Shown here: positions 2,366-26,034 of the stretch, piece after piece
Numbering within the stretch: position 1 is the first letter of the stretch
Layout of the letters: each line of letters begins with the position of its first letter
Assembly (NCBI RefSeq): GCF_018336915.1
Contig: NZ_CP064923.1
Coordinates: 4,110,001 to 4,142,000, forward strand
From: Acaryochloris marina S15
GTDB taxonomy: Bacteria > Cyanobacteriota > Cyanobacteriia > Thermosynechococcales > Thermosynechococcaceae
Reading direction: 5' to 3'
DNA length: 32,000 nucleotides
Position numbers and translations under genes: made by a program
Notes under the pieces: model-generated
Told to the model about the DNA's origin: nothing
The model's database searches: none
The model's input: the letters and a program-made list of their open reading frames with translations, nothing else

Positions 2366-2508
2366 GTGGGTATCCTGACTGAGAGGGTGAGTTCAGGCAA
2401 CTTAAGCGTTCCGTTTTTTGCATCATCCTTCATAATCTAATGGTGTTATTAGAACCGTAATGGTTCGGGCCGAAAGATGTTGATTGTGCCCAAAAAAGTG
2501 GGTATCCT
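2366..2508 (+). repeat. Two copies of the 11-mer GTGGGTATCCT (2366-2376 and 2498-2508) in the fumC/pilM divergent intergenic region
   Basis: The two copies are an exact direct repeat read from the sequence, with starts 132 bp apart. Both lie upstream of my preferred pilM start. Confidence 0.5.
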
Positions 2509-2582
2509 CCCAACAGAACCAAGCCTTAAACATTAGGTTTAATTATTTCCATATTGTTATTCAGCCTGTAGCGGACATACCT

Positions 2583-3671
2583 GTGGTGACTTCATTAAAA
2601 AGTCTGTTTTCGAATTCGAATCAGGGGGTAGGCGTAGAGTTAACCCCGGACAGCGTGAATATCGTTCAACTTAAGCAACAAAAGCAGGGGACAAACCTCA
2701 ATACTTTTGCGGCAATTCCTATTCCAGAAGGCGCTTTTCAAGATGGCCGGATTACTGATCCAGACGCCATTGCCGATGCCCTTCGTCAAGGAATTACAGA
2801 ACATAAAATCAAAGCCAAAACTGCTATATGTGCCGTTCCTATTGGTGAAGCTGTCATTCGGTTAATTCGTTTACCTGCCGAACTGGACGAAATGGAACTG
2901 CGGGATATGGTTCTTAATCAAGAAGCAGCCATATATCTGCCCTTCCCTAGAGAAGAAGCAGATGTGGACTTTCAACGATTAGGAACAGACATCGATGAGG
3001 ATGGCATTGAGCGAGTAGAAGTTCTCCTCGTTGCTACGCCAAAGGACATTACTGAAAACTACCTCAATGTTTTCCAACAGGCAGGTCTAGATCTGAAGGT
3101 TCTAGAAGTCAGTAGCTTTTCCTTAATCAGAACCCTGCGAAATCAACTCCTCCAATTTATGGAAGGGGAAGCAGTGGCACTGGTGAATATTGATTTTGAT
3201 GGTACTGAAATTAGTATCGTCATGGATGGTATTCCTCAATTTAATCGGAAGGTACCGATTGGCACTCATCATCTTCAAAATGCTTTGAGTCGGGCGATGA
3301 ATTTGCCTGGAGCAATGGGGGCAGATTTATTGCAAGGGATGACCGTTCCTTTGGACGTCACAGACAACACTGCCAATAACCCCAGCTCTGCTGCCATCCT
3401 GAGAATGTTAAGCGATTTATCAGACGAACTTCGCCGTTCCATCGACTTCTACTTAAACCAGGGTGAAAATTTAGATATTACGCAAGTCTTTGTATCAGGG
3501 CCAGGGGCCAGTTTAGGACAAATTGATGAATTTTTAACCCAGCGTTTAGGACTGACTACGACATTAGTCGATCCAATCAGTACGCTCGGCATTCAAAATT
3601 CAGATAGTATTCCGATGGCTCAACGTCCTGCGTTAAGTGTTGTTATGGGTCTTGGGATGCGGGAGGTATAA
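2583..3671 (+). CDS. pilM: Type IV pilus assembly protein PilM (actin-like ATPase fold)
   Basis: It is the first gene of a pilM-N-O-Q string. The N-terminus (V)VTSLKSLFSNSNQGVGVELTPDSVNIVQLK matches the usual PilM start. The ORF-track start at 2484 is a TTG that adds about 33 atypical residues. GTG at 2583 or 2586 is more plausible, but the exact start is uncertain. Confidence 0.9.
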   Translation: MVTSLKSLFSNSNQGVGVELTPDSVNIVQLKQQKQGTNLNTFAAIPIPEGAFQDGRITDPDAIADALRQGITEHKIKAKTAICAVPIGEAVIRLIRLPAELDEMELRDMVLNQEAAIYLPFPREEADVDFQRLGTDIDEDGIERVEVLLVATPKDITENYLNVFQQAGLDLKVLEVSSFSLIRTLRNQLLQFMEGEAVALVNIDFDGTEISIVMDGIPQFNRKVPIGTHHLQNALSRAMNLPGAMGADLLQGMTVPLDVTDNTANNPSSAAILRMLSDLSDELRRSIDFYLNQGENLDITQVFVSGPGASLGQIDEFLTQRLGLTTTLVDPISTLGIQNSDSIPMAQRPALSVVMGLGMREV

Positions 3672-3675
3672 GTGC

Positions 3676-4422
3676 ATGTATTCAATTGATATCAACCTAT
3701 TAAATGACCGTCCAGAATATGGTCAACAAGTTGTCTCTTCTGCCAACTATGACAGTGATGATAAAACACCACTCTTTATTGGTTTAGGTGTGGGTGCAGC
3801 AGCATTAGGCTTAGTCTTAGTTGGCTTTGGCGTCACGTCATTCTTGAATCAGCAATTAGTAGCTGAAGAAGAGAATTTAGATAGTGAACTCGCTCAGCTA
3901 GCGCCAAAGTTGGCGGAAGTTGATGATCTAAAAGCTCAAGAGCAGCAAGTTAAAGCTGAAACAAAAGCTTTAGCAACGATCTTTAACCAAATCAAGCCTT
4001 GGTCAGCAACCTTGCAAGACATCCGCGATCGTGTTCCACCCACCTTGCAGGTGATAAAAATTCAGCAAAAGGCTGTAACGCCCCCTGCACAGACGGGACA
4101 ACCTAATACAACCCCCGTTGCCGCTTTATCGGCACCGACACAGTTGACGATTACCGGCAACGCCATTTCCTTCAACGATGTCAATGACTTTGTATTGACT
4201 TTGAGAAAGTCACCCTTCCTCACCGTTGCACAGACACAGCTAGAGTCATCCGAGCGCAAAACAAATGATAAGACTAAGGTCTCTTTAGTTCAACATCAAT
4301 TAAAAACCACGATCAATGATGTTCCAGCGTCCGAATTACTACAAATTCTGAACGCAAAAGGTGCATCTGGATTAGCTGCCCGGATTGGGGCACTGAAGCA
4401 AAAAGGAGTAATGAATCCATGA
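3676..4422 (+). CDS. pilN: Type IV pilus assembly protein PilN (single-pass membrane, coiled coil)
   Basis: ATG at 3676 is preceded by GGGAGG at 3661-3666. The product starts MYSIDINLLNDRPEY (PilN/Fimbrial assembly-like), followed by one TM helix (PLFIGLGVGAAALGLVLVGFGV). Its position between pilM and pilO supports the call. Confidence 0.85.
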   Translation: MYSIDINLLNDRPEYGQQVVSSANYDSDDKTPLFIGLGVGAAALGLVLVGFGVTSFLNQQLVAEEENLDSELAQLAPKLAEVDDLKAQEQQVKAETKALATIFNQIKPWSATLQDIRDRVPPTLQVIKIQQKAVTPPAQTGQPNTTPVAALSAPTQLTITGNAISFNDVNDFVLTLRKSPFLTVAQTQLESSERKTNDKTKVSLVQHQLKTTINDVPASELLQILNAKGASGLAARIGALKQKGVMNP

Positions 4423-5135
4423 CGGCCACTGGCGGATTTGCAAGAGAAGATGAACTCTTGGGACCTTCTTATCCCACTTTATTTGGGATCACTTTCACCC
4501 CCACGGTATCAGGAATCTTGGCAGCTGTTGTCGGTGTAGGCCTAGCGGCATATGTCGGAACTCAGCTTGTCTCACCAAAGATTACTGAATACCAAGGGCT
4601 CCAAGAATCTGTTGAGCAGAAAAAAACAGATTTAGAACAAAAAGAAGCAACGACTCAACGAGTAGATGAGATTGTTGCGCGGCTTAATCGCGCAAAGCGA
4701 GAAAATAGCGAGGTTCGCACTCTTTTCTCAGATCAGCAAGCATTGGATACATTGCTCTTAGATTTAAATCGCGTCATTGTTTCTAGTAATGCTGAACTAC
4801 AGACATTTAAGCCTGATTACAGTTCGTCTGGCACTGTGACCGATAGCTCCTTAGGGGCATCCTTAAATAGCAAGATCAAACGGCAAGTAACCGCTGTATC
4901 TTTTCAAGGAACGTTCAACCAGACTTTGCAAATTATGCAAGCCATTGATCGTCTGCAAACTGTTTTGGTAGTCCGTGACTTATCGATGGAGCTACAAAAA
5001 CCAACCGACTTTGGCCCCCGAAATCTGGTGAAGTCTACTTTTAATTTGCATGCTTATGTGCCTTTAAGTGCAGAAGAAGCTGCTGCTGCTCAGGCTGCTG
5101 CCGCAAAAGCTAAACCAGAGGCTACGACAAATTAA
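4419..5135 (+). CDS. pilO: Type IV pilus assembly protein PilO
   Basis: The ATGA start/stop overlap with pilN at 4419-4422 suggests translational coupling. There is an AAAGGAG Shine-Dalgarno upstream. The product has one TM helix followed by a coiled coil, and the gene sits before the secretin gene. Confidence 0.8.
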   Translation: MTATGGFAREDELLGPSYPTLFGITFTPTVSGILAAVVGVGLAAYVGTQLVSPKITEYQGLQESVEQKKTDLEQKEATTQRVDEIVARLNRAKRENSEVRTLFSDQQALDTLLLDLNRVIVSSNAELQTFKPDYSSSGTVTDSSLGASLNSKIKRQVTAVSFQGTFNQTLQIMQAIDRLQTVLVVRDLSMELQKPTDFGPRNLVKSTFNLHAYVPLSAEEAAAAQAAAAKAKPEATTN

Positions 5136-5220
5136 ATTCAATCGCTATTGCCTATGCTGCAACATGCAGCTCAATCTTCAACGAACAATCATCATTAATT
5201 ATTAAATAGAGGAGTGTAGG

Positions 5221-7272
5221 GTGAACTCGTATCAAGGAAAACCCGGAATTATTATTGGCTGCGCTGCGGCCGCATTAGGCGCAATGATTCAGCCAGTATG
5301 GGCTGCTGAAACTGAAGTGACCAATGTTCAACTCAATCCCACTGCAAAGGGATTTGAACTCGTACTTGGAACTCAAGGTGATAACCGCCCCCCCATTTTT
5401 ACAGTCAATCGAGGTAATACTTCCGTTTCCGATGTCAGTAATTCTCTCTTACGACTGCCGGAAGCAGGCTCATTTCAACAGAAAGATCCAGCTCCTGGCA
5501 TTAAATTTGTAGAAGTTCGACAATTAGATCCTGATACAGTCCGGATTACAGTTGAAGGAGTTCATTCTGCTCCCATTGCCGAAACGATTCGCAACGACAA
5601 TCGTGATGGTGTATTGGCCATCAAATTTGATGGTGCTCCCGGTAGTAGTGATCCGGTAGCCACATCTTCTCAACCCTCCAATCTTCGCTCTCGGGCTAGC
5701 GCTGTGCCCTCCTTTAGAAGTCGGGCTAAGGCTCCCCCTGTTGGAGATATGGCCATCGCTCCCTTGAATGTTGAGCCTGACCGTATTGATCTGGGAAGTG
5801 ACCAAATTATCCCTAAGTTGCTACTGCGTGAAGCTCCTGTACGAGAAGTTTTGACACTCTTAGGCCGTGCTGCTAATGTCAACGTTGCATTTGCAGAGCA
5901 AGGTGGTGAAGGTGAAGAAGGATCTTCCGCCTCGTCTACCATCACCCTAGACATCGAGAATGAGTCTGTTGATGATGTCTTTAACTACGTCTTACGCTTG
6001 TCTGGAATGCAGGCCAATCGAGTCGGTCAAACCGTCTTTGTAGGTAAAACTCTACCAGGCGATGCCCAAAACCGGGTTGTGAGAACAATTCGTCTGAATC
6101 AAATCAAAGCAACATCAACGAGTAAGAGATCAAATACACTTTCAAGCAAGGCTGATACGGGAGGGAATATTACTCCTCAATCGGATAGTGGCAGTAGTTC
6201 TAGTACCACTGAAACTGGAATCACTCGTGAAACTTCTCTTACACAAGAGATAGAATCGCAAGGCGCTAAAGAAACTTTAGAGAATTATGGGGCGAATGGC
6301 GGTAGTGAAGAAGGAAGTTCTGCTCTTTTAGAAGGACTAGAAGTTGTCGCTGATGGTCGGACAAACACGATCACCCTCATCGGCACACCTCGCAAAGTAG
6401 AGACAGCAACATCGATCTTGACGAGATTGGATGTTCGACAACGTCAAGTAGCAATTAACGTCAAATTTATAGATGTCAATTTGCTGAAGGGTAAAACCTC
6501 AAATGCTGACTTACAATTTCGTGCCAATGATTCTTTAGGAATCGGCTTTAGACAAGACCCAAATGGTAGTGGCAACAGTGGTCTGTCGACAATTTTTGGA
6601 TCAGGTGCGGTTGATATTGTTGGCAGTGGTCTGTTTACATTGACTGAAACATTTTTGGCTAATTTGTTTGTATCTATACAAAATAATAATGCCAAAATTC
6701 TGACGAATCCTACATTGCTAGTGCAGGAAGGGAGTTCAGCGCAGGTCAACCTGACTCAACAAGTGTTTACAGGCTTTGTACAGAGAACAAATACTGATGC
6801 TACTGATGCTGGAGGCGTCTCTTCTACACAATCTCTAGAACCAAACATTCAGAATGCTGGAGTCATCCTCAATGTCGCAGTAGACCATATTGATGACAAT
6901 GGATTTGTGACCATGAGTATGTCGCCAGAAGTCAGTTCAATTTCAGGAACGTTCACAGATGCTTTATCTGGTGGACAAGCTAATCTGCTGGCACAACGTC
7001 GAATCGAAACAGGCAAGTTACGCCTACGAGATGGTCAGACTCTAGTGCTAACAGGTATTATCCAAGACCAAGATCGTGTAGGAGTTAGCAAAGTTCCGAT
7101 TCTGGGTGATATTCCTCTTTTGGGCCGCCTATTCCGTCGAGAAACTAACTCTCGAGAGAGGACTGAATTAGTAGTCTTGGTAAGACCTGAAATTGTAGAC
7201 GACTCGGATCAATCTACTTTTGGTTACGATTATAAGCCGGGTGAAGAATCGCGAAAGTTATTGAAGCCCTAG
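5221..7272 (+). CDS. pilQ: Type IV pilus secretin PilQ (AMIN-like N-terminus, Ser/Thr-rich linker, C-terminal secretin domain)
   Basis: GTG start at 5221 lies 6 nt after GAGGAG. A signal peptide is present (IIIGCAAAALGAMIQPVWAAE). The C-terminal secretin motifs are LRLRDGQTLVLTGIIQDQD...VSKVPILGDIPLLGRLFRRE...ELVVLVRPEIV. Confidence 0.9.
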   Translation: MNSYQGKPGIIIGCAAAALGAMIQPVWAAETEVTNVQLNPTAKGFELVLGTQGDNRPPIFTVNRGNTSVSDVSNSLLRLPEAGSFQQKDPAPGIKFVEVRQLDPDTVRITVEGVHSAPIAETIRNDNRDGVLAIKFDGAPGSSDPVATSSQPSNLRSRASAVPSFRSRAKAPPVGDMAIAPLNVEPDRIDLGSDQIIPKLLLREAPVREVLTLLGRAANVNVAFAEQGGEGEEGSSASSTITLDIENESVDDVFNYVLRLSGMQANRVGQTVFVGKTLPGDAQNRVVRTIRLNQIKATSTSKRSNTLSSKADTGGNITPQSDSGSSSSTTETGITRETSLTQEIESQGAKETLENYGANGGSEEGSSALLEGLEVVADGRTNTITLIGTPRKVETATSILTRLDVRQRQVAINVKFIDVNLLKGKTSNADLQFRANDSLGIGFRQDPNGSGNSGLSTIFGSGAVDIVGSGLFTLTETFLANLFVSIQNNNAKILTNPTLLVQEGSSAQVNLTQQVFTGFVQRTNTDATDAGGVSSTQSLEPNIQNAGVILNVAVDHIDDNGFVTMSMSPEVSSISGTFTDALSGGQANLLAQRRIETGKLRLRDGQTLVLTGIIQDQDRVGVSKVPILGDIPLLGRLFRRETNSRERTELVVLVRPEIVDDSDQSTFGYDYKPGEESRKLLKP

Positions 7273-7287
7273 ATTCATACTCTATCT

Positions 7288-7359
7288 ACACAAACCTAAT
7301 CTAACAGCGAAGCCCATCATGTTTGTATGATGGGCTTCGCTGTTAGATTAGGTTTGTGT
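7288..7359. terminator. 33-bp perfect inverted repeat with a 6-nt loop between convergent pilQ and rpe; a likely bidirectional terminator or palindromic element
   Basis: The left arm 7288-7320 (acacaaacctaatctaacagcgaagcccatcat) is the exact reverse complement of the right arm 7327-7359. The loop is gtttgt at 7321-7326. It starts 16 nt after the pilQ stop and ends 67 nt before the rpe stop. Confidence 0.6.
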
Positions 7360-7425
7360 GCTTAGCTAAACAGAGGGTTGTACACTGTTGCTCAACCAGA
7401 GATGCGGCCCCGTAGCTGGTTTGAT

Positions 7426-8133
7426 TTATACTGTCACTAATTCTGGTTCAGACCGCTTGCTGTTACGGATAGCTTCGATAGTTGTGGCATAGTCATCAGC
7501 CTTGAACACAGCTGATCCAGCCACAATGGCATTAGCCCCAGCTTCCAAAACTTGCCAAGAATTGTTGGCTTTTAGGCCACCATCGACTTCAATCCAAGGA
7601 TCTAGTCCACGCTCATCACACATTTGACGAAGCTTACGAATCTTGGGTAGCACTCCTGGAATGAAGCTTTGGCCGCCAAATCCAGGGTTAACACTCATGA
7701 TCAAAACCAAATCGCAAAGTTCTAAAACATAATCAATTTGATCTAAAGAAGTGCCAGGATTCAAAACGACTCCCGCCATTTTGCCTAACTCTTTAATTTG
7801 ACCTAAAGCTCGATGGAGATGGGTTGTAGAGCTAGCTTCGGCGTGAACGGAAATGATGTCTGCCCCTGCTTTAGCAAAGTCGGCAACATATCGCTCAGGT
7901 TCCACAATCATCAAGTGAACATCTAAAGGCTTCTCTGTCACTGGGCGAAGAGCATCCACAATTAAAGGGCCAATGGTGATATTTGGGACAAAACGACCAT
8001 CCATAACATCTACATGAATCCAGTCCGCCCCAGCTTTATCGACGGCTCGAACTTCCTCACCTAAACGGCTAAAATCCGCAGACAGAATAGATGGAGAGAT
8101 GACGGTCGATTTGGGTGAAGAAGATAGAGTCAT
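7426..8133 (-). CDS. rpe: Ribulose-phosphate 3-epimerase
   Basis: The product is 235 aa. It has [42 protein letters not shown] and VDGGL motifs characteristic of Rpe. Confidence 0.95.
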
Positions 8134-8169
8134 GGTAAAAGATCCGGTTATGACGACTGCTTAGAGAGG

Positions 8170-8227
8170 CAAAGTTGAAAACTTGAGCACTTTCGCAGTA
8201 ACCAGTTTAACAAAATCTTCAACTTTG
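8170..8227. repeat. 10-bp perfect inverted repeat CAAAGTTGAA (8170-8179) / TTCAACTTTG (8218-8227) between the MscS-CNB gene and rpe
   Basis: The arms are exact reverse complements separated by 38 nt. The repeat lies in the 132-bp gap downstream of the channel gene and upstream of the rpe start. Confidence 0.35.
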
Positions 8228-8265
8228 ACCTAACCCTGATTCTTAATCAACCCCTGATAAATCGG

Positions 8266-9717
8266 TTAAGCGTAGGTTTGTTGGGCCAGTTGAATCGCTT
8301 TGCGACGGGCCTCGATAATTTCATCCATCTCCCGGGCTAGTTGAGGGGTGCGTTCGATCAGCACTTGCATAGCTTCGATTTCTAAAATCATGACATCCAC
8401 ATCGCTCAGGGCAACAACGGAGTTAGAACTAGGTTCCCTTGAGAGCAAAGCTGTGGCCCCAAAAAAATCTCCTTTGGATAACCTCAAGACTTCTTGATCA
8501 TGATTTGTGTGACTCAGGACATTCATCTGAACCTGACCCGCCAACAGAAAGTTCAGCTTTACCTCTTCTTGTCCTTGATAGATAATGCGTTCCCCTTTAC
8601 CAAAGGATTTAAAGTCTGCATTGGCAACCAGTTGCTCTAAGACATCTGAATGGGTCGTGATGAAACAGGGAAGCGATCGCAACTCCGTAATAATCCGATT
8701 GGTACTGCCGTTTAACTCATCCTTGTGAGGGCGTTCATGAATCAAGGTGCGAATGGGAAATGGAATCGTTAGCCCATGACGCTGGGCGGCATACCAAACC
8801 CGAGTCATAAATGCATCACGAATATCGGGAACCCGATCATAATCCCGCAAATACAAACGGACATAGTAATTGATGGATGAATCCCCATAGGCACTCGTTT
8901 GGATGATGGGTTCTGGGTCCGATAAAACTCCTGGTGTTTCCAACGCTGCTTGGCGAATCACCTGCTTAACCTTATTGGGTGGATCATCGTAGGAAAACCC
9001 TAATTCAATCGGTTCACCATGCAAGGGTTGGGGGCGGCGATAGTTGTAAAACACTTCCTTGGCCAACACAGAGTTGGGCACAATCAGCATTTCTTTGTTG
9101 CGAGTGATGAGGTGGACGGCACGCCAGTTAATTTCAATTACTTTACCAACCACGTCCCCAAATTTGAGCCAATCTCCAATCACAAAGGGGCGACCAAACA
9201 GCAGTGCAATCCCTGAAAATAAGTTACCCAGAGTATCTTGGAGGGCAAGACCAATCACAATTGAACTAACCCCTAAGGCGGTCAGCAACCCACCTAAATC
9301 GGTTTTCCAGACCAATGAGAGCACAAATGCCGTCCCAATTAAGATGAGGAAAAACCGGGTTAAATCTCTAAGGAGCTTAGGCACTTGGGCCTGCCAAGTA
9401 TGTCCCCCTGCTTCCACAAACAGCAGCACATTTACATAGGACAACGCCGCATGAATCAAAGACACCCAGAGGGATGTCTGCAGCAAGCGAATGGCCGTTT
9501 GTTCAGTATCTAAACCGATAATTTTGGTGAGGACAATAAACCCAACGAAAATCGGCAAGACCAGATTTCGCAAGATTCTCAGGGTATGGACCAAAGGCTT
9601 CCCATGTTTCTGGGAATAGACAATGGATTCATTTAAGACCAACATCAGGCAGGGAAACCCTACCATCAAGCCGCAGCTCCAGAGAAACCAGGATTGCTGA
9701 AGAAGAGAGGAAGTCAT
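8266..9717 (-). CDS. MscS-family mechanosensitive channel with a C-terminal cyclic-nucleotide-binding (CAP_ED-like) domain (bCNG-type architecture)
   Basis: Several N-terminal TM helices precede the MscS core LGNLFSGIALLFGRPFVIGDWLKFGDVVGKVIEINWRAVHL. The C-terminal beta-roll region is FGKGERIIYQGQE...LSKGDFFGATALLSREPSSNSVVA. The ORF-track start at 9783 is a TTG that overlaps the upstream gene. The ATG at 9717 (MTSSLLQQSWFLW) is preferred. Confidence 0.85.
   Translation of the reverse strand: MTSSLLQQSWFLWSCGLMVGFPCLMLVLNESIVYSQKHGKPLVHTLRILRNLVLPIFVGFIVLTKIIGLDTEQTAIRLLQTSLWVSLIHAALSYVNVLLFVEAGGHTWQAQVPKLLRDLTRFFLILIGTAFVLSLVWKTDLGGLLTALGVSSIVIGLALQDTLGNLFSGIALLFGRPFVIGDWLKFGDVVGKVIEINWRAVHLITRNKEMLIVPNSVLAKEVFYNYRRPQPLHGEPIELGFSYDDPPNKVKQVIRQAALETPGVLSDPEPIIQTSAYGDSSINYYVRLYLRDYDRVPDIRDAFMTRVWYAAQRHGLTIPFPIRTLIHERPHKDELNGSTNRIITELRSLPCFITTHSDVLEQLVANADFKSFGKGERIIYQGQEEVKLNFLLAGQVQMNVLSHTNHDQEVLRLSKGDFFGATALLSREPSSNSVVALSDVDVMILEIEAMQVLIERTPQLAREMDEIIEARRKAIQLAQQTYA
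8299..8661 (-). other. Cyclic-nucleotide-binding-like domain of the MscS protein (approximate bounds)
   Basis: The region FKSFGKGERIIYQGQEEVKLNFLLAGQVQMNV...GDFFGATALLSREPSSNSVVALSDVDVMILE has the CAP-effector-domain pattern. The phosphate-binding cassette lies at 8407-8460 (see findings). Confidence 0.7.
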
Positions 9718-9764
9718 TACTTGCACTGAGAAGACGTCAGAAGAAATGGGGAAAATGAGCGCAG

Positions 9765-11864
9765 CTAAATCTTGAGCAACCAAGCCGGGAGCTTATTATT
9801 ACCACTAATGATGACTTCACGACTATTATCAAACTCATAGATATCGCCCAGCTGGTCATGAACCGATTGGCTGACCTGAACCGTATCGCCTTCGCCGGCT
9901 GTTTGCATACGATGGGCAATATTGACCGTATCTCCCCACAAGTCATAAATAAACTTGCTGCGACCGACAATACCCGCCACCACAGCTCCAGAATTGATGC
10001 CGACTCGGGCTCGCAATGCAGTTTGATGGGTTTGATTGAACCGCTGGACAATACGGGTAATCTCAATACCAAAGTCCATAATCCGTTTGGTATGGTCCAG
10101 TCGGGGAACAGACAGACCACAAACGGCCATATAGCCGCTACCAATCGTTTTAATCTTTTCTACACCGAAGCGTTCAGCAGCTTCGTCAAAGGCGCGGACT
10201 AGCTCATTGAGTAAAGCTACAATTTCACTGGCAGGCAGTATTTCTGCTAAATCAGTGAATCCAATTAAGTCTGCAAATAACACCGTGACATTGGCATAGC
10301 TATCGGCAATTTGCTCCTCACCACTTTTTAAGCGTTGGGCAACCGGTTCAGGCAAAATACAAGAGAGCAATTGCTCATTTTCCTGGCTTTGTAGTTCTAA
10401 CGCTTGGGTTTTATTAGATAAACTTTCCACCATTTGGTTGAAAGAAACCGCCAAATCATGGAACTCATCTTGAGAACTGACAGAGACAGTGACGTCGGTA
10501 TTGCCTTCACTGAGGTGCCGAAAACCCGTAATCAAGGTTTGGATAGGCTTTACAAACAAACGGGATAGAAAAAGCGCCAGAACAGTGATCACCAAGATCA
10601 AAATTGCGGTTGAAATCAGGACTTGCTTCTGAAATTCGGTAATGGGAGCAAAAGCTTCGTCTGCATCCATTTCAGCCAAGATGGCCCAGTCCAGACCTTT
10701 GACTTGGAGGGTACTATAGGAGCTGAGAACAGGAATTCCCCGATAATCATCAATAATATCGATACCCGAATTACCTAGCAGGGCTCGCTGAGCTGCAATT
10801 GTTTTGACTTCTTGCTCCAAAATTGAGTTCTTCTGCCGCCGCATTCGCTCAATTTGTTGAGATTCGAGACCACTTTTGGCCAAGGATTGAAAATAGTTGG
10901 AAGAGTTTTCTAATAAGAAACGAGAATTAGACCGCAACAGAAAATCTGAGCCAACTAAATAAGTTTCCCCACTCGTCCCTAGACCCATTTCTTGCCACCG
11001 TTGACCGTTGGTCATGACTTCGTCAATCTTCTTGATATTGACCTGAAGAGCCATCACGCCAATCAGTTCTCCTCCCTCGAATAAAGGGCTGGCAATAATG
11101 GCAGCGGGACTATTAAGAGAGGGGCGATAGGGTTCAAAATCTGTGAAGGTTACGAACTTAGGCTCTCCTTTACGAACGACCTCCCGGAATGCTTGGGCTA
11201 AGACACTTTGAGAATAGGGACCTGACTCTAAATCAGTACTAAAATCAACCCCTTTATAGGTGCTGTAGACGACTTTGCCAGATTTAGGATCGATCAAAAA
11301 CAGATCTTCATAGGTGAATTCTGAGACTAAAGAGCGGAATGCTGGATGATATCGTCGATGCACTTGGGTATATTTGCTACCATCGCCTGGATCATCAATT
11401 TGGACTTTTTCGTCAAAATCCGGCGTTTTAATGGTGTAGTGATACTGCAAATAGACATCACTATTGCCCAAAGGCAAATAGGTTTGGACCTGGGGTTCCC
11501 CAGCTATATTGGCGTCTAAGGGCTGGATAAATTCTTTTTGGTAATAGGCTTGAATCGCTGGCTGCCACTGGCTTGGAATTTTTTTGGAATTAAGTTCCTG
11601 GTGGGCTTGCTTAAACGCTTTCATGGCCTCTTTGGTGGTGGGATTACCACTGAGAAAGCGCATTTGGCGGTTCAGTTGATCAAAGAATGATCGCACCTCA
11701 TAGCTTTTAGTAGTGCGTAAGCTGGTGAGCTGGTTAAAAATACGGCGGGTTAACGCAGCTTTACCGCTGTTGTAACCAATAAAAGCAATTACTAGGATTG
11801 AGCTTACGCTGACCCCTAGGAACATCAGGGTCAATTTAGATTGAATACTTAACTTCTTCAGCAC
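9765..11864 (-). CDS. Membrane-bound class III adenylate/guanylate cyclase-domain protein: TM, extracytoplasmic Cache-like sensor, TM, HAMP, cyclase homology domain
   Basis: The N-terminal TM is LMFLGVSVSSILVIAFIGY. A roughly 380-aa extracytoplasmic region carries Cache-like strings (PAAIIASPLFEGGELIGVMALQV; DYRGIPVLSSYSTLQVKGLDWAILAEM). The second TM is ISTAILILVITVLALFLSRLF. The HAMP is VKPIQTLITGFRHLSEGN...FHDLAVSFNQMVESL. The cyclase domain is VTVLFADLIGFT...EKIKTIGSGYMAV...YDLWGDTVNIAHRMQ. The ORF-track start at 11894 is TTG. GTG at 11864, 9 nt after AGGAAG, is my preferred start, but it is uncertain. Confidence 0.85.
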   Translation of the reverse strand: MLKKLSIQSKLTLMFLGVSVSSILVIAFIGYNSGKAALTRRIFNQLTSLRTTKSYEVRSFFDQLNRQMRFLSGNPTTKEAMKAFKQAHQELNSKKIPSQWQPAIQAYYQKEFIQPLDANIAGEPQVQTYLPLGNSDVYLQYHYTIKTPDFDEKVQIDDPGDGSKYTQVHRRYHPAFRSLVSEFTYEDLFLIDPKSGKVVYSTYKGVDFSTDLESGPYSQSVLAQAFREVVRKGEPKFVTFTDFEPYRPSLNSPAAIIASPLFEGGELIGVMALQVNIKKIDEVMTNGQRWQEMGLGTSGETYLVGSDFLLRSNSRFLLENSSNYFQSLAKSGLESQQIERMRRQKNSILEQEVKTIAAQRALLGNSGIDIIDDYRGIPVLSSYSTLQVKGLDWAILAEMDADEAFAPITEFQKQVLISTAILILVITVLALFLSRLFVKPIQTLITGFRHLSEGNTDVTVSVSSQDEFHDLAVSFNQMVESLSNKTQALELQSQENEQLLSCILPEPVAQRLKSGEEQIADSYANVTVLFADLIGFTDLAEILPASEIVALLNELVRAFDEAAERFGVEKIKTIGSGYMAVCGLSVPRLDHTKRIMDFGIEITRIVQRFNQTHQTALRARVGINSGAVVAGIVGRSKFIYDLWGDTVNIAHRMQTAGEGDTVQVSQSVHDQLGDIYEFDNSREVIISGNNKLPAWLLKI
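9795..10292 (-). other. Class III cyclase homology domain (approximate bounds)
   Basis: It spans ANVTVLFADLIGFTDLAE through GDTVQVSQSVHDQL. The motifs are listed in the parent CDS. Confidence 0.8.
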
Positions 11865-12379
11865 TCGTGGAGTCTTCCTCAGACAATCGGTCAAGGTCTT
11901 GCACTTGGCTTGTTTTTACCATGCTTCGTACCGTTTATGGCTGAAAAATCTTGTTTTTGCTACGACTGTAGAGATATTGGAGTTAAATTCTGAAAGAAGG
12001 GAATCTTAGAGTTATCGAAATCGACTTTATCGTCAGGCTGATAACATCCGTTTTTCAACATTATGTGCCTATCCTCAAAAAGCTTCATCTCGCCTGATCC
12101 TTATCCAACAATGCATTTCAGCCAAATGTTATCCATATATTTAGCCAGATTCAAGTCTTTAGACTTTATGTATCTTTACTTAACAAGGACTTAATTTGTA
12201 CTTTCTTATACTATATTTAAGTTAAGAAAAGATAACCTTAAGCACTGTTGCCAGACAGTCTGATTTGGTGCGCAAACTTGTGATTTGGGAAGTGCTAACA
12301 ACTTCAAAAGCAACTAAGTTTGCAATGGCTCAAGGGTATTTAGAACGCAGTTTTGGAGTTGTGAGGATAACGCGACGTG

Positions 12380-14092
12380 ATGCAGCAACAACTCATGTCA
12401 TCCCCGCTTGCTAATGGCGCACTGCAGCGATATGACGCCCGTAAGATCGCATCTTACTACCGCTGGCGTCCTTGGCAAGCTCTCTGGCGTTTATTCAACA
12501 TTATTTGGTTATTTGGTGGGTTTGTTTGGGGTCTGCTATGGGACCGATGGACGAACAATAGTGCGGCCCATTCTCTTCAACGGGCCATTCAAATTCGTAA
12601 AATCCTGACACGGTTAGGCCCCACCTTCATTAAAGTGGGGCAGGCTCTATCCACACGCCCTGATCTCATCCCCAAAGAATTCCTGACGGAGCTGATGTTG
12701 CTCCAAGACCAGTTGCCTCCTTTCCCGAATGACAAAGCCTTTGCCTTAATTGAATCTGAACTGCGTCAGCCCATCCGTGAGATTTATCAAGAAATTTCGG
12801 CAAAGCCCGTCGCGGCCGCCAGTTTAGGACAGGTTTATCGAGGTCGATTGTTTACGGGCGAAGAGGTGGCTATTAAGGTCCAACGCCCAAATCTAAGGCC
12901 AAAGCTGACATTGGATCTCTATCTAATGCGGCAGATGGCGGCTTCGTTTGGGCGATTTCTACCCCTCAATTTGGGCCATGACTTAACGCTAATTGTGGAC
13001 GAGTTCGGCACCAAACTGTTTGAAGAGATTGACTATATCAATGAAGGGCAAAATGCCGAGCGGTTTGCGGAAAACTTCAAAGAGTATCCTGCGGTTGAAG
13101 TGCCTGGAATTCACTGGGCTTACAGTAGCAAGAAAGTCCTGACCCTGCAGTGGATAAATGGTTTTAAGCTAACCGATAGTCAATGCGCAGTGGATGCCAA
13201 TATGGACCCGGATCGCCTGGTGCAGATTGGTGTGATTTCTAGTTTGCGTCAACTGCTGGAGTTTGGATTTTTCCATGCCGATCCACATCCTGGCAATCTC
13301 TTTGCCACGTCTCAAGGCAGTATGGCCTATGTAGATTTTGGCATGATGGATCAGCTCGATCAACCTACCAAAAATACGTTGGTAGATGCGGTCGTTCATT
13401 TGGTCAACAAAGACTATGAATTGTTAGCATCTGACTTTGTAAAGCTAGGCTTTCTTACCCCTGAGACCGATATCCGGCCCATTATCCCAGCATTGGAAGA
13501 TGTCTTTGATGACATCATTGGGGCAAAGGTCGGCGATTTCAATTTCAAAACCATTACGGATCGGTTCTCGGAGTTGATGTATGACTATCCTTTCCGAGTT
13601 CCAGCTAAGTTTGCTCTGATCATCCGATCTTTGGTTACCCAAGAAGGGGTCGCCCTGTGCCTTAATCCCGACTTCAAAATTCTGGAAGTCAGCTATCCCT
13701 ATGTAGCTCAACGCTTACTCGCTGGAGAAACGCCTGACTTTCAGCGTCGCTTACTAGAAGTGCTGTTTAAGGACGGGAAGTTCCAATGGCAGCGCTTGGA
13801 GAACCTGATTGCGATCGCACAAACGGATCAGAGTTTCGATCTCATTCCCACCGCCCGCTTAGGCATGCAGTTCTTAATGTCTGATGAGGGAGATTACTTA
13901 CGTCGTCAGGTGGTCTTGGCCTTGATCGAAGATGATCGACTGCATACCGAAGAAGTTGAGCGGCTGTGGAACTTAATTAAGGACGATTTGAAGCCAGAGA
14001 AGTTGTTTAATGTGGCCTTAGGGGCCTTGGCCGAATTCTCTGACTCCAACCTTCCCGAGTGGCTACCTCGTCCCCCCCTACCTATTTCCTAA
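12380..14092 (+). CDS. ABC1/UbiB(AarF)-family atypical protein kinase
   Basis: Motifs present are KVGQALSTRPDLIP, PVAAASLGQVYRGRL, AIKVQRP, FFHADPHPGNL and YVDFGMM. GTG at 12377 is immediately followed by ATG at 12380, and either could be the start. Confidence 0.9.
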   Translation: MQQQLMSSPLANGALQRYDARKIASYYRWRPWQALWRLFNIIWLFGGFVWGLLWDRWTNNSAAHSLQRAIQIRKILTRLGPTFIKVGQALSTRPDLIPKEFLTELMLLQDQLPPFPNDKAFALIESELRQPIREIYQEISAKPVAAASLGQVYRGRLFTGEEVAIKVQRPNLRPKLTLDLYLMRQMAASFGRFLPLNLGHDLTLIVDEFGTKLFEEIDYINEGQNAERFAENFKEYPAVEVPGIHWAYSSKKVLTLQWINGFKLTDSQCAVDANMDPDRLVQIGVISSLRQLLEFGFFHADPHPGNLFATSQGSMAYVDFGMMDQLDQPTKNTLVDAVVHLVNKDYELLASDFVKLGFLTPETDIRPIIPALEDVFDDIIGAKVGDFNFKTITDRFSELMYDYPFRVPAKFALIIRSLVTQEGVALCLNPDFKILEVSYPYVAQRLLAGETPDFQRRLLEVLFKDGKFQWQRLENLIAIAQTDQSFDLIPTARLGMQFLMSDEGDYLRRQVVLALIEDDRLHTEEVERLWNLIKDDLKPEKLFNVALGALAEFSDSNLPEWLPRPPLPIS

Positions 14093-22768: not shown

Positions 22769-23608
22769 TCATTGGCTATGGACAGAGACCCTATAGGTAG
22801 GGATAGGACTACTGTTTCCGCCCCGCAGACTGCCTGAGATGGGTTGAGTTTGCTGGGGCCAAGCACTCACCATCACCGCCACATGGCGATCACAAACGAC
22901 TAAACCCATAGTGGGATCGTAGCCTCGCCAGCCTGCTCCTGGTAAATAGACTTCGGCCCAAGCATGAAGGGTTTGCTCTTGACTTGGCTCCCCCGCCTCA
23001 TAACCACTGACAAAGCGGGTCGCTAACCCCATGCCGCGACAAGCAGCCATAAATAGCCAGACAAAGTCTCGGCACGTTCCCTGTTTTTGCTGCCAAGTCA
23101 GCCAAGGAGGCTGGGGTTGCCCCGTTTCTCGGGTTTGGTATTGGCAAGATTGATTAATTTGTAAATTAAGTTGGGTCAGGAAGTTGATCACATTGCTATC
23201 TACCGCCATTGCAATCTCCTGAGCAAGCTGGGTAGCAACCGCATCTAAATCAGAGTAGAGATAGGGATACAGAATGGCCTTAAGGGAACTGGGATAGTCA
23301 ACGGGAAAGTGCGTTGCCCAGGAGTCCAATAAATAGTTAAAGGGGTTGGTGCAAGTCGTTATCACCTCGGATGTTGCGGTCACTTGCAGCGTGGTCAATG
23401 GGGTTTCTGGCCACCAGCAACGCATCACCGTATTCCCTTCCGCATCTAAAGCCTGGTTTAACCCCATCGGCTCAGGCACAATCTGCAGATCAAAATTGGA
23501 GACCTGCTGCTCCCCCATACTCCGAGGACGAAGCCGCAAAAGATGTGGCCCCAATTCGGCGGCCTGAGGATAGGTATAGGTCGTGGCATGAACAATCGTA
23601 AAATGCAC
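22769..23608 (-). CDS. Transglutaminase-family protein (Bact_transglu_N plus transglutaminase core)
   Basis: It starts with GTG. The N-terminus (V)HFTIVHATTYTYPQAAELGPHLLRLRPRS is typical. The catalytic Cys is in QGTCRDFVWLFMAACRGMGLATRFVSGY, His in HAWAEVYLPGAGW and Asp in GYDPT. It begins 4 nt after the alpha-E stop. Confidence 0.9.
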   Translation of the reverse strand: MHFTIVHATTYTYPQAAELGPHLLRLRPRSMGEQQVSNFDLQIVPEPMGLNQALDAEGNTVMRCWWPETPLTTLQVTATSEVITTCTNPFNYLLDSWATHFPVDYPSSLKAILYPYLYSDLDAVATQLAQEIAMAVDSNVINFLTQLNLQINQSCQYQTRETGQPQPPWLTWQQKQGTCRDFVWLFMAACRGMGLATRFVSGYEAGEPSQEQTLHAWAEVYLPGAGWRGYDPTMGLVVCDRHVAVMVSAWPQQTQPISGSLRGGNSSPIPTYRVSVHSQ

Positions 23609-23612
23609 AAGT

Positions 23613-24596
23613 TTAAGACTGAGATTGAATTTGTAGATGGGTGTGGACAGGACGGCGATCCAAAAAGGTTTTAAAGATTTCCTGATCCACTTGATTCATC
23701 TGCTGTTGCAATCGATCCAAAAATTGATGCATTCCTCCCTCAATAATTTCTTCAACCGTTAGAAACTCTAATTCGGAGCGCAAACGGCCAATGGACCGTT
23801 CCGCAGGGTTGCACCAGGATCCTAAAGGACTGCCGGAGACTAAATGCAAAGACCGTTCGACCTGAACCGCACAAAATCGAATAGAACGGGGAAAATCTGG
23901 ATCAAGGATCAGAAAATCTGCCACCTCTGCGGGGGTAATTAAGTGCCGATTGCTGCGTTTACGATACATTTCATAGGCACTGGTGGATTTTAACAGGGCA
24001 ATCCAGCCTAATTCATCAATCGGAGTTCCCATATGCTGAAGGGACGGCAAGAGCATAAAGTATTTGACATCCAGGATACGGGAAGTTTTATCTGCCCGTT
24101 CTAATAAGCGTCCCATTTGGCCAAAATGCCAGCCCTCATTATGGGAAATGGTCGCGTCCATAATCCCGGCAAAGAGGTGGCTGGCCTGCCTTACTTCTTC
24201 CAAAAATTGGTTCAGATCGGCCAAAGCTAAATCGTCTGCCGTATTGGCCACCAGCAAATAAAAGGCATTAACATGCTGCCACATTTCTGTGGAGATCACT
24301 TCTCGCACCGATCGAGCATTTTCTCTGGCTTTTTGTAAACAAGAGATCAAGGAATTGGGATATTGATGGTCAAAGGTGAGGAACTTAATGACGTTTTCAG
24401 CATTGGCTTCCCCATAGTGCTGCTCAAAGAAATCTTTATCCCCGGTGGTGGCAACTAGGGGCTGCCACTGCTGCTGCACCCGGGTCGGCAGATCCAAAAT
24501 TAAGTTGAGATTGACCTCTAGGAAACGAGCAACATTTTCGGCTCTCTCAATGTAGCGATTGAGCCAAAAGATAGAATCGGCAACACGACTAAGCAT
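23613..24596 (-). CDS. Alpha-E domain protein (DUF403 family)
   Basis: ATG at 24596 gives MLSRVADSIFWLNRYIERAENVARFLEVN, the canonical alpha-E start. It overlaps the ATP-grasp gene by 8 nt (ATGCTTAG). The ORF-track extension to 24638 is unlikely. Confidence 0.9.
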   Translation of the reverse strand: MLSRVADSIFWLNRYIERAENVARFLEVNLNLILDLPTRVQQQWQPLVATTGDKDFFEQHYGEANAENVIKFLTFDHQYPNSLISCLQKARENARSVREVISTEMWQHVNAFYLLVANTADDLALADLNQFLEEVRQASHLFAGIMDATISHNEGWHFGQMGRLLERADKTSRILDVKYFMLLPSLQHMGTPIDELGWIALLKSTSAYEMYRKRSNRHLITPAEVADFLILDPDFPRSIRFCAVQVERSLHLVSGSPLGSWCNPAERSIGRLRSELEFLTVEEIIEGGMHQFLDRLQQQMNQVDQEIFKTFLDRRPVHTHLQIQSQS

Positions 24597-26034
24597 TTTC
24601 CTCCGGGCATAGTACCCATGTATCTTTAGAGCCCCCACCTTGTGACGAATTCACGACGAGTGATCCTTTCTTTAAGGCCACTCTTGTTAATCCTCCTGGA
24701 TGGACATAAATGTCCTGGCCGTAGAGGATATAGGGGCGCAAATCAACATGACATCCAGAAAATTCCTCTCCCAAGATGGTCGGGACTCTGGAAAGACAAA
24801 GGGTTGGTTGCGCAATGTAGTTGCGAGGATTGGCACGAATACGCTGGGCAAACTCCTGGCGTTCTGCCTCGGTGGATTGGGTGCCAATCAGCATGCCATA
24901 TCCCCCAGATTCATTCGCAGCCTTGACCACTAGCTGATCGAGGTTGGCAAGAACATGCTTGAGCTGTTGGTCCTCCCAGCATAAGTAGGTGGGGACATTG
25001 GCCAGAATTGGATCTTCACCTAAATAGTATTTGATCATGTCCGGGACGTAGGCATAGATGACTTTATCATCAGCAATACCGGTTCCAGGGGCATTTGCGA
25101 TCGCAACTCGTCCCGCCCGATACACCTCCATCAATCCCGGTATCCCCAAGTGAGAATCAGGCCGAAAGGCAGTGGGGTCCATAAAATCATCATCCAGGCG
25201 ACGATAAATAACGTCTACCTGCTGTAACCCCTTGGTCGTCTGCATTTGCAGATAGCCATCCACCACAACTAAATCGCGCCCTTCCACCAGCTCAATCCCC
25301 ATCTGCTGAGCAAGATAGGAATGTTCAAAGTAAGCAGAGTTATAAATACCAGGCGTGAGGACGACGACGGTTGGGCTGCTAATGGTGTTCGGTGACAAGT
25401 GGATCAAAGTCGCCAATAAGCGGCTAGGGTACTCATCCACTGGCTGAATTGGAATTTCTTTGAAAATTTGAGGGAAGGTACTTTTCATCACCTGCCGATT
25501 TTCGAGGACATAGGAAATTCCAGATGGGCAGCGCAAGTTATCTTCCAGCACGTACCATTGACCATCATTGTCTCGGACTAAGTCAGTGCCCGTAATATGG
25601 CACCAAACGTCCTTGGCCGGTTTTAGACCGATGCAAGGCGACAAATATCCCTTGGCAGACAGGATCAGCTCCTCAGGAATGACCTTATCCTTCAGAATCT
25701 TCTGGTCGTTGTAAATATCATCAATAAACAAATTGAGAGCATGAATACGCTGCTTTAGGCCCTGCTCTAAGAACGTCCAATCTTGAGCAGAAATGACCCT
25801 CGGAATCACATCAAACGGGAAAATCCGCTCAGTTCCTTCCGTTTCACCATAGACATTGAATGTTGCCCCTAGCTTGAACAACGCCTCCTGAGCAGCCCGT
25901 TGACGTTGTAATAGTTCTCCCTCAGGCAAACCATGAATTTTGTCTACCAGAACTTGTCCTTGGGGACGAGGAGTTTGTCCACTCTGGAAAAGCTCATCAT
26001 AGAAATGCTCAGGGTCATAAGTATCAAATCGCAA
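24589..26034 (-). CDS. Circularly permuted type-2 ATP-grasp protein (DUF404/DUF407 family amidoligase)
   Basis: The product is 481 aa with a TTG start at 26034. Family-typical strings are ERIFPFDVIPRVISAQDWTFLEQGLKQRIHALNLFIDDIY, RCPSGISYVLENR, VVLTPGIYNSAYFEHSYLAQQMGIELVEGRDL and VDVIYRRLDDDFMDP. It is the first gene of a three-gene operon. Confidence 0.9.
   Translation of the reverse strand: MRFDTYDPEHFYDELFQSGQTPRPQGQVLVDKIHGLPEGELLQRQRAAQEALFKLGATFNVYGETEGTERIFPFDVIPRVISAQDWTFLEQGLKQRIHALNLFIDDIYNDQKILKDKVIPEELILSAKGYLSPCIGLKPAKDVWCHITGTDLVRDNDGQWYVLEDNLRCPSGISYVLENRQVMKSTFPQIFKEIPIQPVDEYPSRLLATLIHLSPNTISSPTVVVLTPGIYNSAYFEHSYLAQQMGIELVEGRDLVVVDGYLQMQTTKGLQQVDVIYRRLDDDFMDPTAFRPDSHLGIPGLMEVYRAGRVAIANAPGTGIADDKVIYAYVPDMIKYYLGEDPILANVPTYLCWEDQQLKHVLANLDQLVVKAANESGGYGMLIGTQSTEAERQEFAQRIRANPRNYIAQPTLCLSRVPTILGEEFSGCHVDLRPYILYGQDIYVHPGGLTRVALKKGSLVVNSSQGGGSKDTWVLCPEENA

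Follow-up and report, generated by a model that had tools for sequence, protein, structure and literature searches.

Analysis of a 32,000-nucleotide (nt) stretch of Acaryochloris marina S15 (contig NZ_CP064923.1, positions 4,110,001 to 4,142,000; hereafter the window, with positions counted from its first letter) identified two adjacent minus-strand genes, the first coding for a membrane receptor that ends in a class III cyclase-homology domain (CHD) and the second for an MscS-family channel that ends in a cyclic-nucleotide-binding (CNB) fold. These two genes have remained together across many cyanobacterial lineages, and within this linked clade both the catalytic residues of the receptor and the nucleotide-binding residues of the channel are degenerate. 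We tentatively favour, at a little under an even chance, a hard-wired receptor-channel pair in which the crippled cyclase domain signals directly to the degenerate nucleotide-binding domain of the channel.

Architecture and conservation of the gene pair

The initial annotation had described a dCache-HAMP-class III cyclase-homology gene lying 47 nt upstream of an MscS channel gene with a CNB tail, and our analysis confirmed both the coordinates and the domain content of this tandem arrangement, features well beyond what chance would produce. Features of the two genes and of the spacer between them were located as follows.

9765..11864, minus strand: receptor gene, 699 amino acids (aa) plus stop, comprising a first transmembrane helix (TM1), a periplasmic dCache region, a second transmembrane helix (TM2), HAMP, a transducer helix and the class III CHD
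11778..11834, minus strand: TM1, residues 11-29, hydropathy peak 2.48
10635..11762, minus strand: periplasmic double-Cache sensor with an extra helical insertion, residues 35-410, from Pfam, AlphaFold2 and Foldseek
10566..10622, minus strand: TM2, residues 415-433, hydropathy peak 3.03
10416..10571, minus strand: HAMP domain, residues 432-483, Pfam 55.7 bits
9768..10415, minus strand: transducer helix (LLSCILPEPVAQRLKSGE) and CHD, from Pfam Guanylate_cyc and alignment to AC9 C1/C2
10137..10139, minus strand: codon of Ser576, the counterpart of the second metal-binding Asp (Asp300 of Rv1625c, Asp440 of mammalian C1)
9718..9764, minus strand: spacer between the receptor and channel genes, 47 nt, in orthologous loci often -4 or -1 nt
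8266..9717, minus strand: MscS-family channel gene with C-terminal CNB-fold domain, 483 aa plus stop
9208..9717, minus strand: membrane region with five hydrophobic segments, from hydropathy and alignment to 2vv5
about 9190-9297, minus strand: MscS TM3-like pore helix (GLLTALGVSSIVIGLALQD...), the last hydrophobic segment, from alignment to E. coli MscS
8758..9237, minus strand: MscS beta domain and alpha-beta vestibule, from Pfam MS_channel_2nd and MS_channel_3rd and from Protein Data Bank (PDB) alignments
8308..8670, minus strand: CNB-fold domain, residues about 350-470, from Pfam cNMP_binding
8410..8463, minus strand: degenerate phosphate-binding cassette, FGATALLSREPSSNSVVA, with Ala421 for Glu and Ser430 (codon 8428-8430) for Arg

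The receptor gene was read from a GTG start at 11864 to a stop at 9765-9767, its length and N-terminus agreeing with those of 699-aa orthologues, while an alternative in-frame TTG at 11894 would add 10 aa. Its Pfam scores were 168.3 bits for Guanylate_cyc, 55.7 bits for HAMP and 42.7 bits for dCache_1, the last falling slightly short of the 45-bit cutoff of that family, and PF02743 was present in most receptor orthologues. The two hydrophobic segments enclose a periplasmic region of ~380 aa, for which an AlphaFold2 model (24 aligned sequences used) reached a pLDDT of 88.6. Almost all of the top 50 Foldseek matches of this model in the PDB were dCache ligand-binding or sensor domains, including Mlp24, DctB, PctA, CtaA and Tlp3 (probability 1.00; TM-score to target 0.5-0.69). 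As modelled, the region has the double PAS-like fold and the long stalk helix of a dCache_1 sensor set between two transmembrane helices, which confirms the Cache-like ectodomain that had been proposed from the letters of the window. The RxW[YF] amino-acid-sensor motif was not found in the periplasmic domain. HAMP follows directly after TM2, as in other HAMP-linked receptors, and the best PDB matches of the C-terminal domain (AC9, AC8, AC5 and mycobacterial Cya/Rv1625c) together with its Pfam score identify a class III cyclase-homology fold. Among receptor orthologues the cyclase domain as a whole was more conserved than the sensor, and the transducer helix that precedes it was nearly invariant.

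The channel gene was read from an ATG at 9717 to a stop at 8266-8268. Public gene calls for this start region (9666-9717) use the second ATG, giving a protein of 466 aa, and a TTG at 9783 had been considered in the initial annotation. Because the first 17 residues encoded from the ATG at 9717 are conserved among orthologues, this start was preferred over both of the others, and the annotated 466-aa start is probably too short. Pfam matches were obtained for MS_channel_1st, MS_channel_2nd (69.1 bits), MS_channel_3rd (51.7 bits) and cNMP_binding (51.2 bits; cutoff 27.5 bits). E. coli MscS structures (2vv5) aligned with the channel through the TM3 pore helix and the vestibule (E = 4e-22), and the PDB matches of the CNB domain were PKG, PKA-R and SthK. 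The protein shares with bCNG channels both the MscS homology of the pore-lining helix and cytoplasmic vestibule and the CNB homology at the C-terminus. The median entropy among channel orthologues was lowest in the pore/beta region (0.86 bits) and highest in the CNB-fold domain (1.91 bits), which are the most and the least conserved parts of the protein. The channel of A. marina MBIC11017 was 95% identical to the window protein. Two long channel homologues were considered as possible cyclase fusions and rejected, the additional part being a second CNB domain in P0244 and a solute-binding domain in P0257, and neither carries a cyclase.

An alignment of 20 diverse channel orthologues was used to fetch 80 loci, one genome per species, from lineages that included Acaryochloris, Thermosynechococcaceae, Pleurocapsales, Pseudanabaena, freshwater Synechococcus, Leptolyngbya-like forms, Phormidium and Chamaesiphon. 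A tblastn search with the window cyclase placed a cyclase orthologue directly upstream and on the same strand in 72 of these 80 channel loci. The eight exceptions were three loci without upstream sequence (L009, L052 and L058), one fused or truncated contig (L032) and four loci from which the cyclase was truly absent at that place (L023, L024, L038 and L044). The first in-frame ATG of the channel lay -4 or -1 nt from the cyclase stop in 16 loci, a junction typical of translational coupling, and the other distances were mostly <150 nt. A pattern scan of the 47-nt spacer in the window showed no terminator-like site. Like the genes of an operon, the two lie on the same strand in a conserved order, with a short or overlapping junction free of terminator-like sites, and they probably form a co-translated pair that is often translationally coupled across the loci.

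The neighbours of the pair in the window behaved differently, as rpe, pilQ, pilO and the ABC1 kinase gene recurred only at three or four loci of the Acaryochloris family (L001-L004), with one partial ABC1 match in L052 as an exception, and murE recurred in L001 only. Since the pair is kept while the compared flanking genes change outside the Acaryochloris family, this pattern points to selection on the pair itself and not to general synteny. In the reverse test, every close or distant cyclase homologue with an MscS gene next downstream belonged to one clade. It had been suggested initially that the genes form a dedicated, self-contained pair, a suggestion to be checked by synteny in relatives. 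The adjacency found across many cyanobacterial lineages, the single clade of the reverse test and the sharing of compared neighbours essentially within the Acaryochloris family all uphold it.

Several individual loci deserve mention. Four genomes showed a gap of ~800 nt with small inserted open reading frames (ORFs) between the two genes (L005:5460-6188, L007:3140-3835, L069:7491-7967 and L035:7246-7967); by eye these ORFs look Uma2-type endonuclease-like, or VapBC-like toxin-antitoxin in L035, and the order and orientation of the pair survive the insertions. In Hyella (L024) the upstream slot is taken by a 178-aa membrane-protein ORF, and a cyclase orthologue (P0151), for which the longest contig is given as 71,573 bp just as for the contig of the channel, may lie on the channel's contig >8 kb away. 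L051, L064, L066 and L072 are titled Rhizobium, Bordetella parapertussis or Gammaproteobacteria and carry a cyanobacterial-type pair with 47-49% identity to the window protein; these metagenome-assembled genomes (MAGs) are probably mislabelled or mis-binned, and all 80 loci look cyanobacterial. On a Xenococcaceae MAG contig (L032:695-3385) one frame joins the receptor Cache-HAMP part to the channel at approximately residue 65, without the whole cyclase domain and the first two channel transmembrane segments. This fusion was considered as "Rosetta stone" evidence of direct coupling and set aside, as it comes from a single MAG contig and its junction would invert the membrane topology of the channel, so that a deletion or assembly artefact is the probable cause.

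Catalytic and binding residues

Six positions of the cyclase domain were scored, namely the two Asp that bind metal, the Lys and Asp that specify the substrate, and the Asn and Arg of the transition state, the roles of which are known from Rv1625c and mammalian C1/C2 (PMC4174876). The window hexad was D532, K572, S576, D641, N648 and R652 (D-K-S-D-N-R). Around Ser576 the window sequence KTIGSGYMA aligned gap-free with 'STLGDCYYC' of AC9 C1, and its local motif, IKTIGS.YMA, is shared with mammalian C2, a catalytically incomplete domain. The window receptor lacks the complete catalytic set of an active class III cyclase, and among database receptor orthologues the full D-K-D-D-N-R set was present in 1 of 119.

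Metagenome contigs were also scanned with the cyclase alignment, which returned close orthologues, full-length homologues of 34-48% identity and many catalytic-domain-only cyclases. Genome and metagenome loci were pooled, and cyclases were divided into those in which the cyclase domain is followed by an MscS gene (linked) and those with no channel within at least 1.2 kb of downstream sequence (unlinked). The canonical hexad was found in 0/78 channel-linked cyclase domains in comparison to 54/54 unlinked ones, numbers that, with the linked proteins all in one clade, do not stand for as many independent events. The unlinked canonical set included paralogues that share the dCache-HAMP-cyclase architecture. 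Residues at the six positions of the linked set (n=78) were distributed as follows.

First metal-binding Asp: D 48, N 14, E 12, K 2, Q 2
Substrate-specifying Lys: K 74, R 4
Second metal-binding Asp: S 41, D 32, G 3, T 1, A 1
Substrate-specifying Asp: D 78
Transition-state Asn: N 51, otherwise V, K, S, T, D, G, A or R
Transition-state Arg: R 20, A 18, G 9, Y 8, H 7, Q 6, otherwise S, E, T, D, N or I

In the linked set, entropy at the metal-binding and transition-state positions equalled or exceeded the domain median (1.4-3.0 bits), and the adenine-specifying Lys and Asp were nearly invariant and among the most conserved positions. Some linked hexads were grossly degenerate (N-R-S-D-R-G, E-R-A-D-S-R and V-K-S-D-T-E). 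In a neighbour-joining tree the linked cyclases formed one clade containing several defective states, with the canonical paralogues outside it, and this variety of defective states indicates a continuing relaxation of constraint on catalysis. Judged from these alignments, the linked cyclase domain looks like a pseudoenzyme in which the fold, the dimer and perhaps nucleotide binding are kept and catalysis is freed from constraint. The proposal that linkage preceded catalytic loss, with independent losses in two subclades, was dropped, as the tree placed the states lacking the second Asp at the base and nested the Asp-containing, Arg-less clade within them. Among the unlinked cyclases, a canonical D-K-D-D-N-R dCache-HAMP-cyclase (L092:2526-5422) overlaps by 4 nt a gene matching class II cAMP-phosphodiesterase/metallo-beta-lactamase proteins. 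This looks like a genuine operon of a cyclic AMP (cAMP) maker plus breaker, unlike the channel-linked clade.

A comparable loss was observed on the channel side. In CNB domains the cassette Arg anchors the phosphate and has co-evolved with a Gly of the β2-β3 loop, and the CNB domains on mechanosensitive channels have been catalogued as canonical with the cassette GEIALLTGGPRTATVRA (Kannan et al. 2007, PMC2246266), while CNB domains of kinetoplastid PKA that lack this Arg are unresponsive to cyclic nucleotides (Ober et al. 2024, PMC10959531). The window cassette FGATALLSREPSSNSVVA was aligned by HMMER with 'FGERALLYDEPRSATIIA' of PKG, which put Ala421 at the position of the ribose-contacting Glu and Ser430 at that of the phosphate-anchoring Arg. 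This Arg position was never Arg in 80/80 orthologous loci, being Ser, Thr, Asn or Ala, with Ser in 66/80. The β2-β3 loop of the window channel reads QGQEEV, without the Gly, and the partner Gly is absent in the orthologues as well. The window channel does not have the sequence determinants of binding a cyclic nucleoside monophosphate (cNMP), namely the cassette Glu and Arg209 of PKA, and Gly169. Within the cyanobacterial clade only the fold-defining residues of the CNB-like domain were fixed, and the variability of the cassette contact positions argues against a single conserved small ligand.

Among 1.8 billion representative proteins, HMMER detected more than 19,000 homologues at E <= 1e-10. 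Full-length MscS-CNB representatives numbered 136, of which 20 had the canonical cassette (17 of those 20 also with the Gly), while the remaining 116 were without the Arg and mostly without the Gly. The cassette positions of the canonical class had an entropy of 0-0.3 bits in comparison to 2-3.6 bits in the Arg-less class.

The initial annotation had derived from the adjacency of the genes a mechanism in which an extracellular ligand leads to cNMP synthesis and the cNMP modulates the channel. This part of the proposal did not survive, given Ser576, the lack of any canonical cyclase in the linked set and a CNB domain without the Arg and the Gly in all orthologues, and a conventional second-messenger link between receptor and channel is, from the residues present, unlikely.

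Mechanistic readings of the pair

In the hard-wired pair that we favour, a small molecule would bind the dCache domain, and the HAMP domain and transducer helix would pass a conformational change on to a dimer of cyclase domains with dead or crippled catalysis. This dimer may still bind an adenine nucleotide, because the adenine-specifying Lys572 and Asp641 are among the most conserved positions. The CNB-like domains beneath the cytoplasmic cage of the channel would read the change in the cyclase dimer by contact, and the contact would shift the ease with which the MscS pore opens. The module may be a descendant or a mimic of a cyclase-to-cNMP-to-channel relay, and diffusible cAMP or cGMP would not be needed. 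A further possibility, which we put forward with some reserve, is that it represents a "fossilised" relay, that is a two-subunit ligand-gated MscS channel in which a pseudo-cyclase talks to a pseudo-CNB domain, so that a chemical sensed by the Cache domain would open or bias the pore without a diffusible messenger.

Several points weigh against direct coupling. The receptor-channel complex is a postulated one, and its two partners, a receptor dimer and a channel heptamer, do not match in symmetry. The correlation of linkage with degeneracy rests largely on one clade, and its cases are phylogenetically non-independent. The D-K-D-D-N-A subclade keeps both metal-binding Asp and is without the transition-state Arg only, and such enzymes can retain low activity. 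In the aligned channel orthologues the cassette Glu is kept in 48/80 and the CNB fold in all, and the fair conservation of the Ser in place of the Arg could reflect another kind of ligand contact. In Planctomycetota and Bdellovibrionota, canonical MscS-CNB channels sometimes lie near canonical CHASE2 cyclases, so that a true cNMP relay probably exists elsewhere. In addition, Caldwell and colleagues reportedly observed in 2010 cAMP-dependent effects for some bCNG members.

Many of these points would suit a local and private cNMP relay, in which the receptor makes some cAMP or another nucleotide by unorthodox chemistry and the CNB domain of the channel binds it without the canonical Arg. We regard this as unlikely, although it is the strongest of the alternatives. 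It would account for the conserved adjacency and coupling and for the near invariance of the adenine-specifying Lys and Asp, and the window protein still has the first metal-binding Asp, the Asn and the Arg, while the D-K-D-D-N-A subclade could keep weak activity. The fairly conserved Ser430 could serve as a ligand contact, 48/80 orthologues keep the cassette Glu, and canonical cyclase and CNB-MscS neighbours occur in other phyla. However, no linked cyclase domain is catalytically complete and several are grossly degenerate, the metal-binding and transition-state positions drift as ordinary positions do, every orthologue is without the phosphate-binding Arg and the Gly that goes with it, and the cassette contacts are unconserved even inside the clade, which speaks against one conserved small ligand.

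Alternatively, the two genes may merely be co-expressed in a shared stress response without direct signalling, the cyclase domain being a nucleotide-sensing or dimerisation module for some other output and the CNB tail a structural or autoinhibitory element. This explanation would fit a channel core that is a normal MscS and better conserved than the rest of the protein, a CNB-like domain that is less conserved than any other part, and the judgement of a 2026 review (PMC13591265) that it is unresolved what cyclic nucleotides do in bCNG gating. We nevertheless judge it improbable, as simple co-regulation rarely keeps genes adjacent, co-oriented and overlapping across lineages while their flanks change, and as catalytic residues are lost only in the channel-linked clade, so that the condition of one protein goes with the presence of its partner.

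Complementation by a second cyclase subunit encoded elsewhere, which would supply the missing residue as in mammalian C1/C2 or in mixed Rv1625c mutants, appears very improbable. The window domain does resemble mammalian C2 at the Lys and Ser positions (IKTIGS.YMA), and the family contains two complementary types of defect, the missing second Asp and the missing Arg. However, these two types were found in different organisms among the loci examined, homodimers are expected of a HAMP-linked membrane receptor, no second cyclase gene lies within the 32-kb window, and the Arg-less CNB domain would stay unrepaired.

A Pycsar-like antiphage system, in which a cyclase and a cNMP-activated membrane effector kill the infected cell, is hardly credible despite a formally similar two-gene layout and weak PADLOC matches (39.8 bits to PycC and ~33 bits, 33.3, to the CNB part of PycTIR effectors), since these scores are far below the Pfam values of 168 and 51 bits and reflect shared domains only, the pair is vertically conserved across cyanobacteria and lies in the window among housekeeping genes outside variable defence islands, the receptor has an extracellular sensor, and both catalytic and binding residues are degenerate; with matches this weak and a context not of the defence type, Pycsar membership was rejected.

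Genomic setting and relation to known systems

Upstream of the pair, one further feature was defined from the ORF map and the sequence.

11865..12376, minus strand: upstream intergenic region of 512 nt, AT-rich, shared divergently with the ABC1-kinase gene

The two-gene unit probably has its promoter and 5' leader in this region. Two blocks within it (about 12153-12238 and 11881-11944) were nearly invariant among three Acaryochloris genomes, in which the flanked proteins differ by 5-18%, and these blocks may serve the pair, or the divergent ABC1-kinase gene, as a promoter, operator or leader element. Rfam, scanned over 7300-12500 at E <= 0.1, gave no match, and a promoter and terminator pattern scan returned sites no more numerous than in shuffled sequence and was not used for promoter placement.

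Elsewhere in the window, a type IV pilus cluster of pilM-pilN-(pilO-like)-pilQ (2484-7272, plus strand) lies two genes from the channel, beyond rpe, and pilO and pilQ recur near the pair in only two or three Acaryochloris loci. A recurrent bacterial module of transglutaminase-like, Alpha-E domain and circularly permuted ATP-grasp genes was found at 22769-26034 on the minus strand. A PAS-PAS-GGDEF-EAL protein of 940 aa, encoded at 26207-29029, belongs to cyclic di-GMP signalling and has no evident link to the pair. At 29283-31535 a pyridine-nucleotide-disulphide oxidoreductase domain is fused, in a single ORF of 750 aa, with AIRS and AIRS_C domains of the selenophosphate-synthetase kind.

Channels of the bCNG family have been known since 2010. 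The window channel has the architecture of this family, an MscS-like pore and vestibule followed by a C-terminal CNB fold (Caldwell et al. 2010; Malcolm et al. 2012; PMC13591265), and the family is found mainly in cyanobacteria (PMC13591265). The window clade differs in lacking the phosphate-binding Arg and the β2-β3 Gly and in the addition of an upstream pseudo-cyclase partner. With class IIIa cyclases that carry a membrane sensor (Rv1625c, Rv3645 and mammalian AC C1/C2) the receptor shares the CHD fold, HAMP, the transducer helix and the adenine-specifying Lys and Asp, whereas its second metal-binding Asp is Ser, as in mammalian C2, and no member of the linked clade is canonical.

A C-terminal CNB domain on a channel is common to the canonical cNMP-gated channels (MloK1 and SthK) and to MscS-CNB proteins. 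Unlike the window clade, the canonical MscS-CNB proteins, which come mostly from Planctomycetota, Bdellovibrionota and related groups, keep FGEM.LLTGEPR[ST]A together with the Gly. In five sampled loci of these canonical proteins, a CHASE2-cyclase gene lay near the channel in two and none was nearby in three. One of the two (L161) is convergent with the channel and has the hexad D-K-D-T-N-R, which we take to be the class IIIb form, and the other (L164) points the same way as the channel, from which it is separated by a small ORF and a Peptidase_M48 gene. Elsewhere, therefore, there may be a true relay from cyclase to channel along these general lines, unlike the tight and degenerate cyanobacterial pair. 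A Peptidase_M48 gene adjoined the canonical MscS-CNB gene in three loci (L161:4001-8679, L162:3109-5509 and L164:488-5518), with the CHASE2-cyclase also near in 2/3, and this arrangement may represent a separate conserved module.

Other CNB domains that no longer bind cyclic nucleotides, such as those of the kinetoplastid PKA regulatory subunit, CooA and CprK, have likewise kept the fold, exchanged the cassette Arg for a polar residue and come under other regulation, and the CNB homology domains of KCNH channels are a further example of CNB domains that do not bind cyclic nucleotides. In these proteins a replacement ligand (nucleoside, haem or intrinsic peptide) is known and its contacts are conserved, whereas in the window clade the pocket positions vary. 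Degenerate GGDEF/EAL proteins such as LapD are second-messenger enzymes reused as signalling adaptors, and as in these a cyclase-type domain without catalytic residues is kept as a conformational module downstream of HAMP. The fold and messenger are different, however, and proteins of the LapD type still bind their messenger, while here both maker and reader are degenerate. Pycsar systems have in common with the pair a cyclase adjoining a CNB membrane protein, and the window pair is set apart from them by its extracellular sensor, MscS pore, degenerate residues and vertical inheritance.

In the literature searched there was no description of a cyclase adjoining bCNG or MscS-CNB genes or of their joint degeneracy, although the original bCNG papers lay outside that scope and a prior mention is possible. 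According to the 2026 review, neither the physiological role of bCNG channels nor the part that cyclic nucleotides play in their gating is known, and no structure is available (PMC13591265).

In summary, cyanobacterial bCNG channels gain a specific conserved partner. The prediction is that this partner would be no working cyclase and the channel tail no cNMP receptor, yet that both would act together. If this is true, it would explain why cAMP gating of bCNG channels has been hard to establish, add a chemically gated mode to the MscS family and provide a clean example of a second-messenger pathway collapsing into a direct protein-protein switch. A cyclic-nucleotide maker and its reader would then, for the first time, be seen retained together as matched pseudo-domains, and bCNG channels would have a physiological partner. 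If instead the pair turns out to be a real, though unorthodox, cNMP relay, the minimum needed for catalysis and for binding would have to be redefined in two well-studied domain families.

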